From: an uncultured bacterium
GTDB taxonomy: Bacteria > Patescibacteriota > Minisyncoccia > Phycocordibacterales > CAIJYI01
DNA length: 64,000 bases
Direction: 5' to 3'
Assembly: GCA_903824855.1 (NCBI GenBank)
Contig: CAIJYI010000043.1
Coordinates: 177-64,176 of the forward strand
This document shows, piece by piece, positions 4,299 to 51,267 of this stretch (within the stretch, counting starts at the first letter, position 1; each line of letters opens with the position of its first letter). A program made the position numbers and the translations under genes. The notes under the pieces are model-generated. The model ran no database searches, was not told where the DNA came from, and was given only the letters and a program-made list of their open reading frames with translations.

Positions 4299-4301
4299 CT
4301 G

Positions 4302-4688
4302 TGGAGATGGGGGGAATCGAACCCCCGTGCAAAAAGGAACTCTTGGTGCCGGTACAAACATAGAATATTTTTTTGGTTTAAATCTGATAAGTCTTAAATA
4401 GACAAAATCTTATCAGTATCGAGCTTCCTTTGTTTTGAAAATGCGCCGAAGCGCTCGCATTTTCTATCCCGATGTTATTACACCTTTTCCTTTTTATCAG
4501 GATTCAAAAAGAAAAGATGCCGAATTTACGCTAAAGCGAATTCCGGAGTAAAGTATGGTGAAACCATAGCTGTTACTTTTGAAGATAAGTTTGCACTTAT
4601 GCATTTTCCTGCGCATTTTGACGGGCGAGCAGGAGTAACCGGTTTGAGCATTCAAGAGGACGGCTTATTGTCTAGGCCGATCATCCCC
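4302..4688 (-). ncRNA. ssrA: tmRNA (ssrA)
   Basis: Minus strand: 5' GGGGAUGAUCGGCC... pairs with 3' ...GGGGGUUCGAUUCCCCC-CAUCUCC-A (T-arm plus 7-bp acceptor with one G-U); an internal reading frame ends ...P-E-F-A-L-A-UAA, a typical tag ending; consensus TTGACA-17-TATACT promoter about 27 nt upstream of the 5' end; smpB lies 2.2 kb away. Confidence 0.65.
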
Positions 4689-18836: not shown

Positions 18837-19277
18837 ATGTCTACATTTCGACTCAAAATAATAACGCAAGAAGAGGTACTTCTCGAACAGGAAGTGGAGT
18901 CGCTTTATGTTACGACAATTGATGGTGATATCACCGTTCTTCCTCATCACACTCCGTATGTAAGTATTCTCAAACCTGCCGAAGTAATCATCAAAGTAGG
19001 AGGGAAGGAAGAATCATTCGCTTGCACCGGCGGAATTTTAGAAGTTACTCCCGAGAAAGTTGTTATCCTTGCAGACTCCGCGGTTCGAACGGAAAAGATT
19101 GATGAAGAAGCGGCGTTAAAAGCGAAAGAACGTGCCGAGAGTGTCATGGCAGAGAAATTGGAATCAAGAGAAAATGCCGAGGCGATGCTTGCTCTCGAAA
19201 AAGCTCTCCTTCATCTTCGTGTCGCGCAAAAAAGAAAGCACCGATCTTCATTGCCGACAAACCCAAATCAAGAATAA
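18837..19277 (+). CDS. atpC: ATP synthase subunit epsilon
   Basis: beta-sandwich N-domain plus helical C-domain; operon position. Confidence 0.85.
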   Translation: MSTFRLKIITQEEVLLEQEVESLYVTTIDGDITVLPHHTPYVSILKPAEVIIKVGGKEESFACTGGILEVTPEKVVILADSAVRTEKIDEEAALKAKERAESVMAEKLESRENAEAMLALEKALLHLRVAQKRKHRSSLPTNPNQE

Positions 19278-19306
19278 AAAAACGCCCCGGAAGACGGGGC
19301 GTTTGA
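19278..19306 (+). terminator. terminator after atpC
   Basis: aaacgccccggaagacggggcgtttg. Confidence 0.55.
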
Positions 19307-19320
19307 CTAAACTTTGAATA

Positions 19321-19479
19321 TTATTTTCCGAATAATTTATGATACCACTTAACCAAAGAATCGTGATACTCAAATTCTTTTGATATAATTATTCCAAAAA
19401 ATAAAGAAAGAGCACAGATGAAAAATAACAAAATTAAAACTAAACCTTCCGGCGAAGAATATACAAAATCGTGAAGCAT
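19321..19479 (-). CDS. small hydrophobic protein (52 aa)
   Basis: GGAGAAATT-ATG RBS; MLHDFVYSSPEGLVLILLFFICALSLFFGIIISK... single TM; not in the ORF track. Confidence 0.4.
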   Translation of the reverse strand: MLHDFVYSSPEGLVLILLFFICALSLFFGIIISKEFEYHDSLVKWYHKLFGK

Positions 19480-19585
19480 AATTTCTCCTTTTTAAATAAA
19501 TTGCAACGATTAAACTACATTCACTATAGAATAATGAGATTTTTTGTCAATCGTTTTCTCATAATAAAACCCCCGAAATATTTCG

Positions 19586-19747
19586 GGGGTTTGAACTATT
19601 TTTTGTTTGTAGGTTTTGTAAAAACCTCTTTAAGAAATTTAATGAGTCCGAGTTCGTCAGAACAAATAAACATCAAAAATCCGATAAGTAAGAGGCCTCC
19701 ATAAAACAAAAGTACCGCAATACCTTCCCACGAACCTAGCATCGTTT
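19586..19747 (-). CDS. small hydrophobic protein (53 aa), paralogue of the 19867-20151 gene
   Basis: MLYETMLGSWEGIAVLLFYGGLLLIGFLMFICS...; GGGAGAA RBS; TTGACA-17-TATACT promoter and an upstream terminator on the minus strand. Confidence 0.45.
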
Positions 19748-19860
19748 CGTACAACATACATTTCTCCCTGTTTAAAATAAGTGGTGTACCTATGTAAAGT
19801 ATAGCACAATTGATAAAATTGTCAAGTAATAAAAAACGCCCATTTTGATGGGCGCTTTGG
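19616..19860. repeat. tandem duplication unit A (about 245 bp), homologous to 20018-20262
   Basis: near-identical nucleotide blocks with a 2-nt indel that shifts the C-terminal reading frame of the small protein. Confidence 0.7.
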
Positions 19861-19866
19861 GTTTTT

Positions 19867-20151
19867 TTAGAATATTCCTAATAGGGCGAATACTCCTTCT
19901 AAGAATATATAAACGATAAAGAGTAATAATCCAAGAATATAGGGAGCAGCTACTATAACTGCAATCGCACAGAATATCCATGCAAGTTTTTTTAATACTT
20001 CTTTTGGTTTTAAAAAGCTCTTTAAGAAATTCAATAGGTCCGATTTCGTCAGAGAACAAATAAACATTAAAAATCCGATGAGTAAGAGGCCTCCATAAAA
20101 CGAAAGTAGAGCAATACCTTCCCACGAACCCAACACTGTTTCGTACAACAT
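19867..20151 (-). CDS. small two-TM membrane protein (94 aa)
   Basis: MLYETVLGSWEGIALLSFYGGLLLIGFLMFICS...; GGGGAGAAatgt-ATG RBS spacing favours this frame over the overlapping 121-aa ORF. Confidence 0.5.
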   Translation of the reverse strand: MLYETVLGSWEGIALLSFYGGLLLIGFLMFICSLTKSDLLNFLKSFLKPKEVLKKLAWIFCAIAVIVAAPYILGLLLFIVYIFLEGVFALLGIF

Positions 20152-20262
20152 ACATTTCTCCCCAGTTTCAATTAGGTGATATATCTATATCCAAAGTATC
20201 ACAATATAATGTTTTGTCAAGTAATAAAAAAACGCTCTCTATCAGAGAGCGTTTGAACTTTT
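20018..20262. repeat. tandem duplication unit B
   Basis: see unit A. Confidence 0.7.
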
Positions 20263-20270
20263 TTTGCTTT

Positions 20271-20423
20271 TTATTCTATGAGTAAAAGCAGACTTGCGAT
20301 AACATGCATTACTAAAGATATCGCCATAAATGAAGCAAGAACAATTACATACAGAGATATAATGATAATAGCGGCAGGGAGGAATATTATTGGGAATAAT
20401 AATATTATAATCCAAAGAAGCAT
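20271..20423 (-). CDS. small hydrophobic protein (50 aa), possibly coupled to the upstream gene
   Basis: MLLWIIILLFPIIFLPAAIIIISLYVIVLASF...; 13 nt after the stop of the upstream gene; no clear SD. Confidence 0.35.
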   Translation of the reverse strand: MLLWIIILLFPIIFLPAAIIIISLYVIVLASFMAISLVMHVIASLLLLIE

Positions 20424-20436
20424 TGTTGAGGCAGTT

Positions 20437-20664
20437 TTATTCACGAGGTGAAGCCCTGTTTTTTTTAGAAAATATCTTGTATGCGCCGAAGATGGCGAGA
20501 GCGGGAATTATTCCATATATGAATATTAGTCCCCCAAAAGCAACAAGAAGAGCGAAGATGATTGCAAGAAGAGGAATCAGGTATAATACGGCAATGATAA
20601 CGATAGGAGATATTATTACTCCAAATAAAATCCATCCTGTTCTTGGTTGAGTGGGTTGTGTCAT
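20437..20664 (-). CDS. small membrane protein (75 aa)
   Basis: AAGGAGG-5nt-ATG RBS; two predicted TM helices. Confidence 0.5.
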   Translation of the reverse strand: MTQPTQPRTGWILFGVIISPIVIIAVLYLIPLLAIIFALLVAFGGLIFIYGIIPALAIFGAYKIFSKKNRASPRE

Positions 20665-20685
20665 TGAGAACCTCCTTTTTTATTT

Positions 20686-20925
20686 TTAAGTTAACCGACG
20701 TTTAATTGAGAGACCGATGAGCGCAATCGCTAAAATTATCATCACAATCCACCAAACGCTAAACAAAAAGGCGAAGATTGTACTAAAGATAATGAAGAGA
20801 AGATAAAATAAAAACCAAATAAGGTATAAAATTTCAAATGCGGCAATCATAAGGAATGGGGAGAGCATAATGCACAAAAGAGTCTGTGCTGTTTGCAATA
20901 AAAGTATATTTCCAGACATGTTCAC
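20686..20925 (-). CDS. small membrane protein (79 aa)
   Basis: AGGAGG upstream; 2-3 predicted TM helices; ends KRRLT. Confidence 0.5.
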   Translation of the reverse strand: MNMSGNILLLQTAQTLLCIMLSPFLMIAAFEILYLIWFLFYLLFIIFSTIFAFLFSVWWIVMIILAIALIGLSIKRRLT

Positions 20926-21051
20926 AAAGAACCTCCTGCCGACATAGTATCATGTTACTCTTATTTGTAAAGTCGTGCCGTTCGGTGTTTTACGGGGTTT
21001 CATTTCTTTATATATTTGTTAAATCTGAGGGAAGTTTGATATACTGATGGT

Positions 21052-21906
21052 ATGTCATTTCATAAACATAAAAAAGTCGGTCTTGCTCTCGGTTCGGGTT
21101 CCGCCCGCGGATTTGCTCATATCGGCGTTATAAAAGTTCTTGAAAAAAATAATATTCCGATTGATTACATTGCCGGTTCCAGTATTGGTGCACTTGTCGG
21201 CGGATTATACGCAGCAACGAAAGATATCGCTTACATTGAAAAACTCGCCTTAGACACCGACTGGTTGCAATTGGTTAAACTCGCTGATCCGTCATTTGGA
21301 AGCGGTTTTATTGCTGGGGAAAAAGTAAAACAATATATTCGTGATGCTCTTCGTGGCACAACTTTTTCTACTCTCAAAATTCCTTTTTCCGTCGTCGCTA
21401 CCGATATTATCGCAGGTGAACCCGTTATCTTTCATGAAGGAGATCTTGCCGAAGTTATACGGGCGAGTATCTCAATTCCTTTCATTTTTCATACCGTCCC
21501 CGATGGTGAAAAAATATTATGCGACGGCGCGCTTTCCATGCCGGTCCCTGTTCCTGTGGCTCTTCAAATGGGAGCGGATTATGTTATTGCGGTTGATCTT
21601 GATTCCGGATATTTCAAACAAGGTCATCCAAAACCAAAAGACAATTTGATGGATATGGGAAATAATGTGGTCATGTTGCTTTCCTCTCATCTCGCAAAAG
21701 AAAATATGAAGAAAGCTGATTTGATATTAACTCCATCTTTGGGTGATGTTGAATGGAAATCTTTCGGTTCCAGAAAAGCTACCGCCGATCTCATTGCTCG
21801 CGGAGAAAAAACAATGGAAGAAGCTCTCCCTCGATACTTTGAAAGTATTAAGCCGAAGAGTATTATCGTCCGCGTTAAAGAATATTTGACTCAACCTTTG
21901 CCTTAA
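21052..21906 (+). CDS. patatin-like phospholipase
   Basis: GLALGSGSARGFAHIGV (oxyanion Gly-rich) and GSSIG serine lipase motif; a TATACT -10 upstream. Confidence 0.8.
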   Translation: MSFHKHKKVGLALGSGSARGFAHIGVIKVLEKNNIPIDYIAGSSIGALVGGLYAATKDIAYIEKLALDTDWLQLVKLADPSFGSGFIAGEKVKQYIRDALRGTTFSTLKIPFSVVATDIIAGEPVIFHEGDLAEVIRASISIPFIFHTVPDGEKILCDGALSMPVPVPVALQMGADYVIAVDLDSGYFKQGHPKPKDNLMDMGNNVVMLLSSHLAKENMKKADLILTPSLGDVEWKSFGSRKATADLIARGEKTMEEALPRYFESIKPKSIIVRVKEYLTQPLP

Positions 21907-22526: not shown

Positions 22527-23177
22527 TTATTTAACATCCGTTCCAAATTTTTTAAAAAGAAAATAGGAATAGATGGTGGTGAAAATTGAGGAAAAAATAA
22601 TCGGCACAATAACAAACCATATTGTGTATTGAGGAAGAAGTAGTCCGATGACGGCCAAGATTCCCGAGTAAACAAAAAGTTTACCGCCGATCTTGTGTGT
22701 TTCGTCCCAGACACGAACACTGGCGAGAGTCCAAGGTGTGCGGAACCCCATGAACCAATTTTGTTTCATTTTTGGCATTGCAATTCCGAGTAATAACCAA
22801 AGGAGTGCCATTGGCGGAACAATCATCACGGTCATATTAAAGGTGAAGCCAAGATTCCAGAAAACGGTGAGCAGATGAATGTAAAAGAGAAAAATAGTAA
22901 CGCCGGCAATTATTGAGTTGTACGATTTTTGAAATAAAGCGATGTTTGCCTTGAGCGGGTCAATCTTCGGAAGAAGAATTAGTAGGGAAGAAATAAAAAT
23001 CATGATGATAGGCATCAGGAAAAGTCCCCAGAATTTTGGCATATAGCCGTTTACTTCGCCGTTCGCTCCCCAGTGCGACGCAATATTTTCGGGGAATTGA
23101 GGATAGAAATAAAAGCCGATAAGAAAAGATGCTACCGTGATTATTCCGATTAACCAATATGTTTGTTTTGTATTCAT
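22527..23177 (-). CDS. SdpI/YhfL-like (DUF1648-type) membrane protein
   Basis: PQFPENIASHWGANGEVNGYMPKFWGLF motif typical of DUF1648/SdpI; multi-TM; the ORF-track N-terminus overlapping pth was trimmed to ATG 23177. Confidence 0.45.
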   Translation of the reverse strand: MNTKQTYWLIGIITVASFLIGFYFYPQFPENIASHWGANGEVNGYMPKFWGLFLMPIIMIFISSLLILLPKIDPLKANIALFQKSYNSIIAGVTIFLFYIHLLTVFWNLGFTFNMTVMIVPPMALLWLLLGIAMPKMKQNWFMGFRTPWTLASVRVWDETHKIGGKLFVYSGILAVIGLLLPQYTIWFVIVPIIFSSIFTTIYSYFLFKKFGTDVK

Positions 23178-23250
23178 AAATATAGAGTACAACAAATTTT
23201 CAGGACTTGTCAATATAATATTATTTTGCAGAGAGTGGTAGAATAGCCAA

Positions 23251-23850
23251 ATGGCATACATCATTGCAGGGCTCGGAAATCCGGGCGAAGAATATTTAAA
23301 TACCAGACACAATACCGGACGCATTATGATCGAACACTTTCGTGAAGCGTTTGATTTTCCTGAATGGAAAGAAGATAAGAAATTGAAAGTTCTTGTTTCG
23401 AAAGGAAAAGTCGGAGAGGAGAGCGTGACGCTTCTCGAGCCGAATAACTTTATGAATAATTCCGGCAAGCAAGTTCTTCCGTTTGTGAAGAGCAAAAAAG
23501 CGGCGGAAAAAACAGTGGTTATTTATGATGATATTGACCTGCCTTTGGGGACGGTGAAAATTTCCTACAATCGAAGTTCCGGTGGACATAACGGTATCGG
23601 TTCTATTATTAAATGTTTGAAGACGCAAGAATTTATTCGTGTGCGCATCGGCGTTTCAAAAGTAGGTGCGAAAGGTCTGGCGAAAAAACCAAAAGGAGAA
23701 GATGCTGTTTTGAAATTCCTCCTCGGAGAATTTAAAAAAGACGAAATGCTGGAATTAAAGAAGATAGAGAAACGAGCCGGTGAAGCGTTAGCCATGATAG
23801 TAACTTCCGGAAGAGAAAAAGCCATGGGAGAAATCAACCGTCTTTCCTAA
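23251..23850 (+). CDS. pth: peptidyl-tRNA hydrolase
   Basis: IIAGLGNPGEEYLNTRHNTG...; Pth family. Confidence 0.9.
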   Translation: MAYIIAGLGNPGEEYLNTRHNTGRIMIEHFREAFDFPEWKEDKKLKVLVSKGKVGEESVTLLEPNNFMNNSGKQVLPFVKSKKAAEKTVVIYDDIDLPLGTVKISYNRSSGGHNGIGSIIKCLKTQEFIRVRIGVSKVGAKGLAKKPKGEDAVLKFLLGEFKKDEMLELKKIEKRAGEALAMIVTSGREKAMGEINRLS

Positions 23851-50010: not shown

Positions 50011-50589
50011 ATGATGCCAAGAAATAAAAAAAGAGGATTTACTTTGCTCGAAATGATCGTCACTCTTTCTGTCTTCATGATTATGACGACGATAATGATA
50101 TCGAGCAACCGCAACACGACAAAGACTGTTGTTTTGAATACCCTCGCGAATCAGGTGATTTCGGTGATACGCCAATCGGAATCCTACGCCCTTACCAAGC
50201 CCGCTTTATCCATAGGGAATTATCCGCCCTACGGAGTTTATTTTAGTACGGGATCCCCTAGCTCTTTTATTCTTTTTAAGGATACTAATAAAGACCACTT
50301 ATACACAGAGGGAGAGAGTCTCCAAAATCTTACTTTTCAACCCGGTTTTACCATTGCGAAACTCTGCGTAAACATGAAGAAGAATAATAAGACTCCCACA
50401 ACATGCACAAGTGTTACTAACATTGATGTTTCCTTCACACGGCCTTATCCGGAGCCGACTATTACCACCACAACATCTACCGTGGGTGAAATTCCTTTTA
50501 CTGACGTAGAGATAATTCTTTCATCGGGTGCGGGTAATATTCAAAAAACAATTGTTGTCTGGGTTACGGGGCAACTGGCTATTGAATAA
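50011..50589 (+). CDS. prepilin-type N-terminal cleavage/methylation domain protein (type IV pilin or pseudopilin)
   Basis: KRGFTLLEMIVTLSVFMI class III signal. Confidence 0.7.
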   Translation: MMPRNKKRGFTLLEMIVTLSVFMIMTTIMISSNRNTTKTVVLNTLANQVISVIRQSESYALTKPALSIGNYPPYGVYFSTGSPSSFILFKDTNKDHLYTEGESLQNLTFQPGFTIAKLCVNMKKNNKTPTTCTSVTNIDVSFTRPYPEPTITTTTSTVGEIPFTDVEIILSSGAGNIQKTIVVWVTGQLAIE

Positions 50590-50604
50590 ATTATGTTTTA
50601 AAAA

Positions 50605-51267
50605 TTGAGAATGAAAGGCGATAAAAAAATGCATCAGCTTAAAAATAATAGAAAAATATTAAATAAAGGATTCACTCTTGTTGAATTGCTTGTTTCCATT
50701 GCTATTTTCAGTATGGTATTTGTCTCAGCGAGTGGTGCTTTCGTATCGGTTCTTGATGCCTATCAAAAAATTACTAAAACGCGCGTGAGTGTTGATAATC
50801 TCACGAATGCGCTTGAAAGTTTGGTGAGAGAAGCAAAGACCGGAACAAACTATCACTGCGGGTCAACCCTTCCTCTAACCACACCATTGGATTGCGCTAG
50901 TGGTGATACTTATTTTGCTTTTGTTAATACCAATGTTCCGAGAATTTTGAGCGGAGGTTCTCAAACGCCTTCTATCGTTTATAAATTTGTTGCTTGCCCG
51001 AGTGCCTTCCCTTATTGCGGAAGAATACAGCGATCTGATGATGGCGGGGTTAATTTTTTTCCCGTGACGGTTGCACCGCCTGACCTTATGATTACTGACC
51101 TTAAATTTATCGCCATAGGATCGACTCCTTTTTCAGATGCAACTTTGAATGTTGTTCAGCCACAGGTCACGATAGTTATAAGAGGATACGTTACTTTGAA
51201 AGGCGGTGTTACTGCTCCTTTTAGTGTACAAACGATGGCAAGTCAACGTAATCTTGATATCCTGTAA
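50605..51267 (+). CDS. type IV pilin-like protein
   Basis: NKGFTLVELLVSIAIFSMV prepilin N-terminus. Confidence 0.65.
   Translation: MRMKGDKKMHQLKNNRKILNKGFTLVELLVSIAIFSMVFVSASGAFVSVLDAYQKITKTRVSVDNLTNALESLVREAKTGTNYHCGSTLPLTTPLDCASGDTYFAFVNTNVPRILSGGSQTPSIVYKFVACPSAFPYCGRIQRSDDGGVNFFPVTVAPPDLMITDLKFIAIGSTPFSDATLNVVQPQVTIVIRGYVTLKGGVTAPFSVQTMASQRNLDIL

Follow-up and report, generated by a model that had tools for sequence, protein, structure and literature searches.

A 64,000-nucleotide stretch of DNA from an uncultured bacterium of the Patescibacteriota (contig CAIJYI010000043.1, positions 177 to 64,176; hereafter the window) carries an array of six small open reading frames (ORFs), g1 to g6, on the minus strand between atpC, the gene for the epsilon subunit of ATP synthase, and a gene for a patatin-like protein. 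The products, of 52-94 aa, consist mostly of transmembrane (TM) helix. By sequence comparison the array resolves into two previously undescribed families of predicted small integral membrane proteins, here called X and Y, which have been inherited vertically at a fixed site, have multiplied by duplication and are under purifying selection; relatives in related bacteria exist for every gene except g3. Our favoured reading, held with moderate confidence, is that these are non-toxic accessory or structural membrane proteins, abundantly expressed and specific to their clade, that were duplicated as cassettes and would act through specific contacts of head and helix. Annotation commonly overlooks small membrane proteins, above all in Candidate Phyla Radiation bacteria, in which about half of the genes are without known function. 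In both undescribed families of the locus the expression signals are clear and the genomic address is conserved; purifying selection can be measured and the history of duplication can be read.

Family Y came to light when a profile of g4, g5 and g6 was run exhaustively against 1.84 billion proteins and retrieved four further clusters, P0007 (48 aa, profile E 3e-8), P0008 (52 aa, 2e-6), P0009 (52 aa, 1.5e-4) and P0010 (40 aa, 2e-4). Its members, of about 50 aa, combine a head motif ML..(D/E).ML.SWEGIA, a TM helix with FFGG and an amphipathic basic tail, which reads ..FLK..F.K in P0007-P0009 and is reduced to a brief basic end in the shorter P0010. Measured against composition-preserving shuffles, g5 matches P0007-P0010 with z 14-20, and the divergent g6 belongs to the family with z 6.1-6.6 against P0007 and P0009 and 3.9 against g5. 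The head has a net charge of -1 to -3 and the tail one of 0 to +4, with a hydrophobic moment of 0.5-0.95; in g5 as a whole, basic residues equal acidic ones in number. These features suggest a topology in which the N-terminus and head are outside, the C-terminus is inside and the tail lies on the inner leaflet. Family X, to which g1 and g2 belong, has about 75 aa, three TM helices and the motifs LSP(F/I)I and IIP.L, and its relatives were found by tblastn. In shuffle tests g1 matches the homolog at L075:1205-1429 (z 7.1) and g2 that at L078:1086-1307 (z 8.7), and g1 and g2 are paralogs of one another (z 5.4). The g1 protein ends in KRRLT.

The third gene, g3, can be placed in family X only doubtfully, and no other member of the array is so uncertain. 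A clear ribosome-binding site is lacking, g3 does not resemble the X family significantly (p 0.06-0.35) and no relative of it was detectable. Across all six proteins the grand average of hydropathy (GRAVY) is 0.76-2.15, with one to three hydropathy-predicted TM segments in each, and the GC content of the region is 33% compared with 40% for the window. An earlier note, made from the letters of the window alone, had proposed six small hydrophobic proteins on the minus strand here, and all six ORFs exist, although g5 had been placed at 19586-19747, 10 nt from its actual position (Table 1). Public gene callers disagree about the region, calling g1, g2, g4, g5 and g6 in some contigs (g1 as the 77-aa form in 18 of them), opposite-strand ORFs in others and g3 never. 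The antisense ORFs at 19471-19704 and 20423-20650 (plus strand; 56 and 75 aa), which some callers annotate in place of g5/g6 and g2, are without support and are probably mis-calls from skewed base composition.

Table 1. Features of the small-gene array and its flanks; positions are those of the window
Feature	Position	Strand	Description
g1	20686-20925	-	X family, 79 aa from GTG, 77 aa from ATG at 20919; about three TM helices
g2	20437-20664	-	X family, 75 aa; charged C-terminus KKNRASPRE; AAGGAGG ribosome-binding site
g3	20271-20444	-	Possible 57-aa ORF with two TM helices; GTG start overlaps g2 stop
g4	19867-20151	-	Y-family derivative, 94 aa
g5	19596-19757	-	Y family, 53 aa; acidic head MLYETMLGSWEGIA, one TM helix, amphipathic basic tail
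g6	19321-19479	-	Divergent Y-family protein, 52 aa; AAGGAG ribosome-binding site
atpC	18837-19277	+	ATP synthase epsilon subunit; convergent neighbour of the array
Patatin-like gene	21052-21906	+	PF01734 match
Repeat copy A	19616-19858 (approx.)	-	Terminator, promoter, 5' untranslated region and most of g5
Repeat copy B	20008-20254 (approx.)	-	Terminator, promoter, 5' untranslated region and N-terminal half of g4
Promoter-like site, g1-g2-g3 unit	20944-20971	-	TTTACA-16-TACTAT, extended -10 TG, 9/12
Promoter, g4	20193-20220	-	TTGACA-16-TACTTT, extended -10 TG; weak -10 (3/6 match); read from the sequence, unlisted by the scan
Promoter, g5	19798-19825	-	TTGACA-16-TATACT, extended -10 TG, 11/12
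Promoter, g6	19523-19550	-	TTGACA-16-TATAGT, extended -10 TG, 11/12
Terminator T1, end of g1-g3 unit	20230-20254	-	11-bp stem and T run, followed directly by TTTTTATTAC and the g4 -35
Terminator T2, end of g4	19833-19858	-	From the intrinsic terminator scan
Terminator T3, end of g5	19567-19592	-	Plus strand only in the scan; minus-strand role read from stem followed by TTTTATTATG, and from the fold
Terminator T4, end of g6	19280-19304	-	Hairpin also 3 nt past the atpC stop on the other strand

A reading of the genes as orphans, suggested by word-indexed searches in which g4 retrieved only itself and g5, g2 retrieved nothing and a g1-g2-g3 profile retrieved only g1, was overturned for family Y by the exhaustive profile search; since that search did find Y relatives, the word-indexed negatives were misleading. 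Scans of JGI metagenomes returned nothing with a g4-g5-g6 profile and only two loci already known with a six-member Y profile. Comparison of the six peptides with Pfam, NCBIfam, PHROGs and PADLOC gave sub-threshold noise only, the best match in a PDB profile search was PufX (E 0.21, not significant), and tblastn against 50,697 phage records gave no match. A gathering-threshold Rfam scan of the window and a permissive scan of the region produced only sub-threshold hits, such as Phe_leader, which appear to be due to the terminator hairpins. In the literature we found no description of these families or of small-protein arrays in Parcubacteria. Neither tblastn nor a scan for the junction motif described below turned up further paralogs in the 64-kb window; weak matches at 48.2-48.9 kb lie inside an unrelated 285-aa membrane protein.

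The address of the two families is conserved. X/Y-bearing contigs come from related Parcubacteria in which atpC is 82-89% and atpD 97% identical to the window, and in every lineage with enough sequence (L072, L074/L075 and L078) X is followed by Y and Y by a convergent atpC, with the X relatives directly upstream of Y on the same strand and a hairpin equivalent to T4 between Y and atpC. The opposite flank varies, being patatin in the window, PHO4 and murG in L074-L077 and PhoU_div in L078. The earlier note had staked its proposal on conservation of the peptides in related genomes, and five of the six genes do have relatives at this same position in Parcubacteria. It had also pointed to the patatin-like neighbour, whose identity holds but whose adjacency is not conserved in relatives. 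Judged by patatin, the nearest genomes at species level carry the label Parcubacteria or Paceibacterota, and in the patatin-based relatives L006 and L007 (70-72% identity) patatin follows mraY-ftsW and there is no array; the adjacency in the window is thus incidental and the conserved neighbour is atpC. The expression signals of Y are also retained, its promoters in the relatives matching the consensus at 11-12 of 12 positions with an extended -10 in every lineage, and each Y having a terminator. In L072 (150-165) and L078 (1300-1310) the TGA stop of X lies inside the TTGACA -35 of the Y promoter and no terminator separates X from Y, so that coding sequence and promoter are very tightly packed.

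The site also shows small-gene turnover outside the window. L072 has, at 160-330, a 28-aa single-TM ORF (MSASIVILAFVFVGLAVCIRKSVKLTKK) between X and Y, with its own TTGACA-N16-TATACT promoter (11/12), AGGAGG ribosome-binding site and terminator; this ORF is not significantly similar to either g3 or g6. In L073, a second and N-terminally shorter Y paralog (MFINYLVIICTVLIFVGLILCPIHDYYVEHREQIKTFVK...; 1502-1619, z 8.9) directly follows P0008, and this pair is an independent tandem duplication in another lineage. Upstream of Y in L073 is an M10 peptidase gene in place of X, and there is no atpC within its 1.6-kb contig. Together, the extra ORF of L072 and the tandem Y paralog of L073 indicate that turnover of small genes at the site is recurrent.

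Within the window, g4 and g5 lie on a tandem duplication. The two repeat copies are offset by 392-395 nt. Their N-terminal coding parts are 88% identical and their tails 87%, against 70% for the promoter and 5' untranslated region (5'UTR); the stems of their terminators differ in sequence and still pair in both copies. Over the 33 codons shared by g4 and g5 there are six synonymous and three non-synonymous changes (Fisher p 0.0035), corresponding to a synonymous divergence (dS) of approximately 0.34, a non-synonymous divergence (dN) of 0.04 and a dN/dS of 0.12. The last value means that the g4 and g5 ORFs are under purifying selection at the protein level. That the array genes encode proteins follows from this ratio, from the greater identity of the coding part of the repeat (88%) than of the 5'UTR (70%) and from retention of the motif in P0007-P0010. 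The earlier note had recognised the tandem duplication, which is real, but had set copy B at 20018-20262, a shift of 8-10 nt, and its description of the event as recent was overstated, since a dS of about 0.34 implies a duplication that is not very recent.

A 2-nt indel that alters the C-terminal frame, likewise part of that earlier description, was confirmed, but the frame is apparently not altered to the end. DNA and protein alignments suggest a second 2-nt indel some 41 nt further on, which restores the frame at "KP", so that only about 14 codons of g4 would be read in the other frame (LTKSDLLNFLKSFL vs DELGLIKFLKEVFT). The frameshifted segment remains amphipathic. The g4 protein thus begins with 33 g5-like residues and continues through this segment; the gene lacks the stop codon of g5 and runs 45 codons further, giving a 45-residue extension with two more TM helices, which is not significantly similar to X, to Y or to other ORFs nearby (best z 2.96, eight tests). 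The outside homologs match the g5 frame, which is therefore ancestral, and that of g4 is derived. A 121-aa ORF on the minus strand (19790-20155) overlaps g4 in another frame, and in it the ancestral tail SDEIGPIEFLKELFKTK can still be read; the frameshift has therefore left the old reading mostly intact in the DNA.

The array reads as four transcription units, namely g1-g2-g3, g4, g5 and g6, each with a candidate promoter and followed by a terminator-like site (Table 1). Promoter sites matching at least 11 of 12 consensus positions number only eight on both strands of the whole window, and one of these (4741-4713) fronts the gene for transfer-messenger RNA (tmRNA; 4299-4688, minus strand, Rfam 112 bits), which can serve as a yardstick: the promoters of g5 and g6 are of the same class. 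Terminator-like sites are in excess, with eight observed where shuffles give 2.0 +/- 1.3. Each of the four junctions, like L072, has a module of the form caaac-hairpin-GTTTTTTATT-(C)TTGAC, whose stems differ in sequence and still pair. T4 is probably shared by g6 and atpC, as the hairpin lies 3 nt after the atpC stop, its use by atpC being judged from position only. Shine-Dalgarno sequences are strong and well spaced ahead of five of the six ORFs (for g1, AGGAGG 6 nt ahead of the GTG at 20925), with g3 the exception, and the 5'UTRs, counted from predicted transcription starts, are short at about 40 nt. Taken together, a near-consensus sigma-70 promoter, a strong Shine-Dalgarno sequence, a short 5'UTR and a terminator for each unit make high and constitutive production probable, and we infer that the proteins are probably made in quantity. 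The earlier note had assigned strong expression signals to each gene, and this stands for the four units, for the ribosome-binding sites of five genes and for the terminators, but not for g3. The TTGACA and TATACT hexamers that it listed are also present, but with a spacer of 16 nt where it had given 17, and the TACTTT of g4 is weak.

The array locus is 100% identical in about 18-30 contigs from several ENA assemblies. Copy-number variation, for which the earlier note had recommended looking, is indicated by a one-copy variant in other assemblies of the same species: contig L071 has a single copy and lacks g4, and two more contigs have, judging from gene coordinates, the same layout, 395 bp shorter. 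Between patatin and the fourth codon of g4, the g4 promoter included, L071 is identical to the window; it then continues as g5, the crossover lying within a 25-nt stretch identical in both copies. With copy B sequence upstream and copy A sequence downstream, this form arose by deletion from two copies rather than being ancestral. L071 (868-1029, equivalent to window 19696-19740) also has three G-to-T changes within 45 nt of g5 (M6I, G12V and G21V), two of them at positions that do not vary across the Y alignment A6 (G12 and G20); these may be sequencing or assembly errors, or they may mark a decaying allele.

The history of the locus can be read as follows. One X followed by one Y, convergent with atpC where the atp operon ends, is the arrangement carried by a small Parcubacteria clade. 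In the genome of the window a terminator-promoter-gene cassette was duplicated in tandem repeatedly and the pair became six genes, after which g4 gained its apparent compensating pair of 2-nt indels and its 45-residue extension; some strains appear to have lost g4 later through recombination between the repeats. On the favoured reading, the proteins would insert into the membrane of their own cell as accessory or structural components, X and Y probably acting together by way of specific contact of the conserved head motif; we do not think it likely that they poison the cell that makes them. The context of the array is housekeeping rather than mobile. So understood, the locus is a tidy case of the birth and turnover of small genes, through cassette duplication, an apparently compensated frameshift, C-terminal extension and the loss of a copy by recombination.

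Precedents for such a role exist, as AcrZ, KdpF, CydX and MgrB are small membrane proteins that modulate larger complexes. The Y proteins are like them in having about 50 aa, a single TM helix and their own expression signals, and like AcrZ in having an N-terminal TM helix and a cytoplasmic C-terminal part. By analogy with these modulators, the conserved Y motif suggests a defined partner. The array differs from them in that there is no homology, and its two co-located families, tandem expansion and fast divergence would be unusual for modulators.

Several observations tell against a non-toxic accessory role or limit the case for it. X and Y evolve fast, retaining 40-50% identity where atpC retains 82-89%, which would also fit genes of the toxin/immunity type or genes driven by conflict, and monocistronic units, tandem copies and copy-number variation are all typical of type I toxin loci. 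The search negatives for family X are weak, since HMMER missed g2 even against itself, and g3 has no support beyond its ORF. The synteny may be mere inherited gene order, as it comes from only four lineages, all fairly close. Finally, the one-copy form could be an artefact of assembly, L071 being a short contig with three odd G-to-T changes, although we consider this unlikely.

The alternative that survives best, possible but rather unlikely in our estimate, is that these are loci resembling type I toxin-antitoxin systems, in which g5 and g6 (perhaps also g4) would depolarise the membrane and be held down by antisense RNAs, the tandem copies being an amplification of the locus. In a published screen for type I toxins, the criteria were a length below about 70 aa, a single TM helix, a C-terminus of polar, charged or aromatic character and tandem repeats whose similarity extends beyond the ORF (Fozo et al. 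2010; PMC2887945). The g5 (53 aa) and g6 (52 aa) proteins, each with one TM helix and a polar, aromatic and charged C-terminus, pass the protein part of that screen, and g4 and g5 form a tandem repeat within one intergenic region with similarity past the coding part. Like the tandem chromosomal toxins Ldr, Ibs, ZorO/ZorP and Fst, and like TxpA/BsrG, the array has individual promoters and terminators, similarity in the flanks of its tandem copies and a copy number that varies between strains (PMC2887945); its sequences evolve fast, and the hairpins of the window have T-rich tails on both strands.

The same screen, however, gives many false positives, and tandem repetition is suggestive rather than defining. 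No match to known toxin families (Hok, Fst/Ldr, TxpA/BsrG, Ibs, TisB, ZorO and others) was found, with only noise in Pfam and NCBIfam to E 1, and no antitoxin RNA family was found in the Rfam scans of the window and region. Antisense promoter-like sites, taken as a proxy for an antisense small RNA, reach only 9-10 of 12 and their position is not conserved across four lineages; the internal terminators of the relatives, unlike the hairpins of the window, are one-directional. In place of the long structured 5'UTR of such toxins, the predicted leaders of about 40 nt fold without stable pairing over the Shine-Dalgarno sequence, and the folds, with z-scores of -1.3 to -3.3, include the terminator hairpin, which is taken to account for much of these values. 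A conserved extracytoplasmic motif and a conserved partner gene with three TM helices are not features of type I loci, and g1, g2 and g4 (75-94 aa, several TM helices) are too long. Of the likenesses to type I toxins, holins and bacteriocins seen in the earlier note, that to type I toxins holds for the size and tail of g5 and g6, the tandem copies and the varying copy number; no homology to any of the three, no phage or lysis context, no leader and no conserved antisense promoter was found. Should toxicity nevertheless be true, these would be the first type I-like toxins reported from the phylum, to our knowledge.

It is doubtful, and less probable again, that X, Y or both bind the Fo sector of ATP synthase, whether they are accessory or assembly subunits specific to the clade or serve to regulate or inhibit the enzyme, and are kept beside atpC for that reason. 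X and Y lie next to atpC in all three informative outside lineages and in the window, with the opposite flank rearranged in three ways, and the atp operon of the window begins at atpB and has no atpI. A precedent is IbsA, a 19-aa hydrophobic peptide that binds subunits a and b of Fo (bioRxiv 10.1101/2025.05.26.656083). The likeness lies in small size, hydrophobicity and a possible link to the F-type ATPase, which here consists of genomic adjacency to atpC only; IbsA is a type I toxin with the antisense RNA Sib, is not encoded beside the atp operon and has no sequence similarity to the array. X and Y are moreover not co-transcribed with the operon, being on the opposite strand with their own promoters, and they converge on its 3' end, unlike AtpI/UncI and AtpZ/AtpR at the operon head. 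The lineages are close, so that adjacency may have been inherited by chance, and the Y genes of L073 lie beside an M10 peptidase gene. No Pfam match to ATP-synt_I, AtpR or another ATP synthase family was obtained, and the fast evolution of X and Y contrasts with the high conservation of their supposed Fo partners. A functional link to atpC, if there is one, would point to lineage-specific components of energy conservation in organisms not yet grown alone, and X and Y would be diversifying along with the unusual energy metabolism of reduced symbionts. As it stands, the locus is an ordinary but well-documented small membrane protein locus, with a modest chance of being something more notable, either a partner of the ATPase or a type I-like toxin from this phylum.

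A bacteriocin with its immunity protein, or a holin-like lysis function, is very unlikely. Here Y would be a peptide that is exported or forms pores, with X as its immunity protein or membrane partner, and the arrangement of a small single-TM gene beside a small multi-TM gene, together with fast diversification, does recall peptide/immunity pairs. In addition, g1 and g2 (75-79 aa, two to three TM helices and a short charged C-terminus) resemble class I and class II holins, although such features are generic. The Y proteins, however, have neither a Sec-type leader nor a double-glycine leader, as the earlier note had correctly stated for the latter; their head is acidic, and they are not cationic overall. 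No ABC exporter, C39 peptidase, accessory, endolysin or phage gene was found near the array, and the exporter, peptidase and accessory genes are missing from L072-L078 also. There is no PHROG, Pfam, PADLOC or phage-genome match, the best PHROGs and Pfam hits (E 0.005) being well under the curated cut-off and to non-holin families, and the position is a fixed chromosomal one beside a housekeeping operon. That the six are not genes at all, but ORFs formed by chance in T-rich spacer DNA, or else non-coding RNAs between promoters and terminators, is least credible, for although T-rich sequence at 33% GC readily gives hydrophobic ORFs, callers disagree on the strand in some contigs and g3 has neither translation signals nor homologs, this is opposed by the dN/dS of 0.12, by conservation at the protein level across lineages whose DNA has diverged, by strong and correctly spaced Shine-Dalgarno sequences before five of the six ORFs and by the lack of any Rfam family at threshold.

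The surroundings of the array include genes for an asparaginase, an SdpI-like protein and Pth. The SdpI-like gene, which encodes a membrane protein of the DUF1648/SdpI family, lies two genes past patatin (22527-23495, minus strand); in Bacillus, SdpI is an immunity and signalling protein. Further away in the window, two adjoining genes on the plus strand (50011-51267) encode proteins with the N-termini GFTLLEMIV and GFTLVELLVS, which we take to be typical of type IV pilins or pseudopilins.

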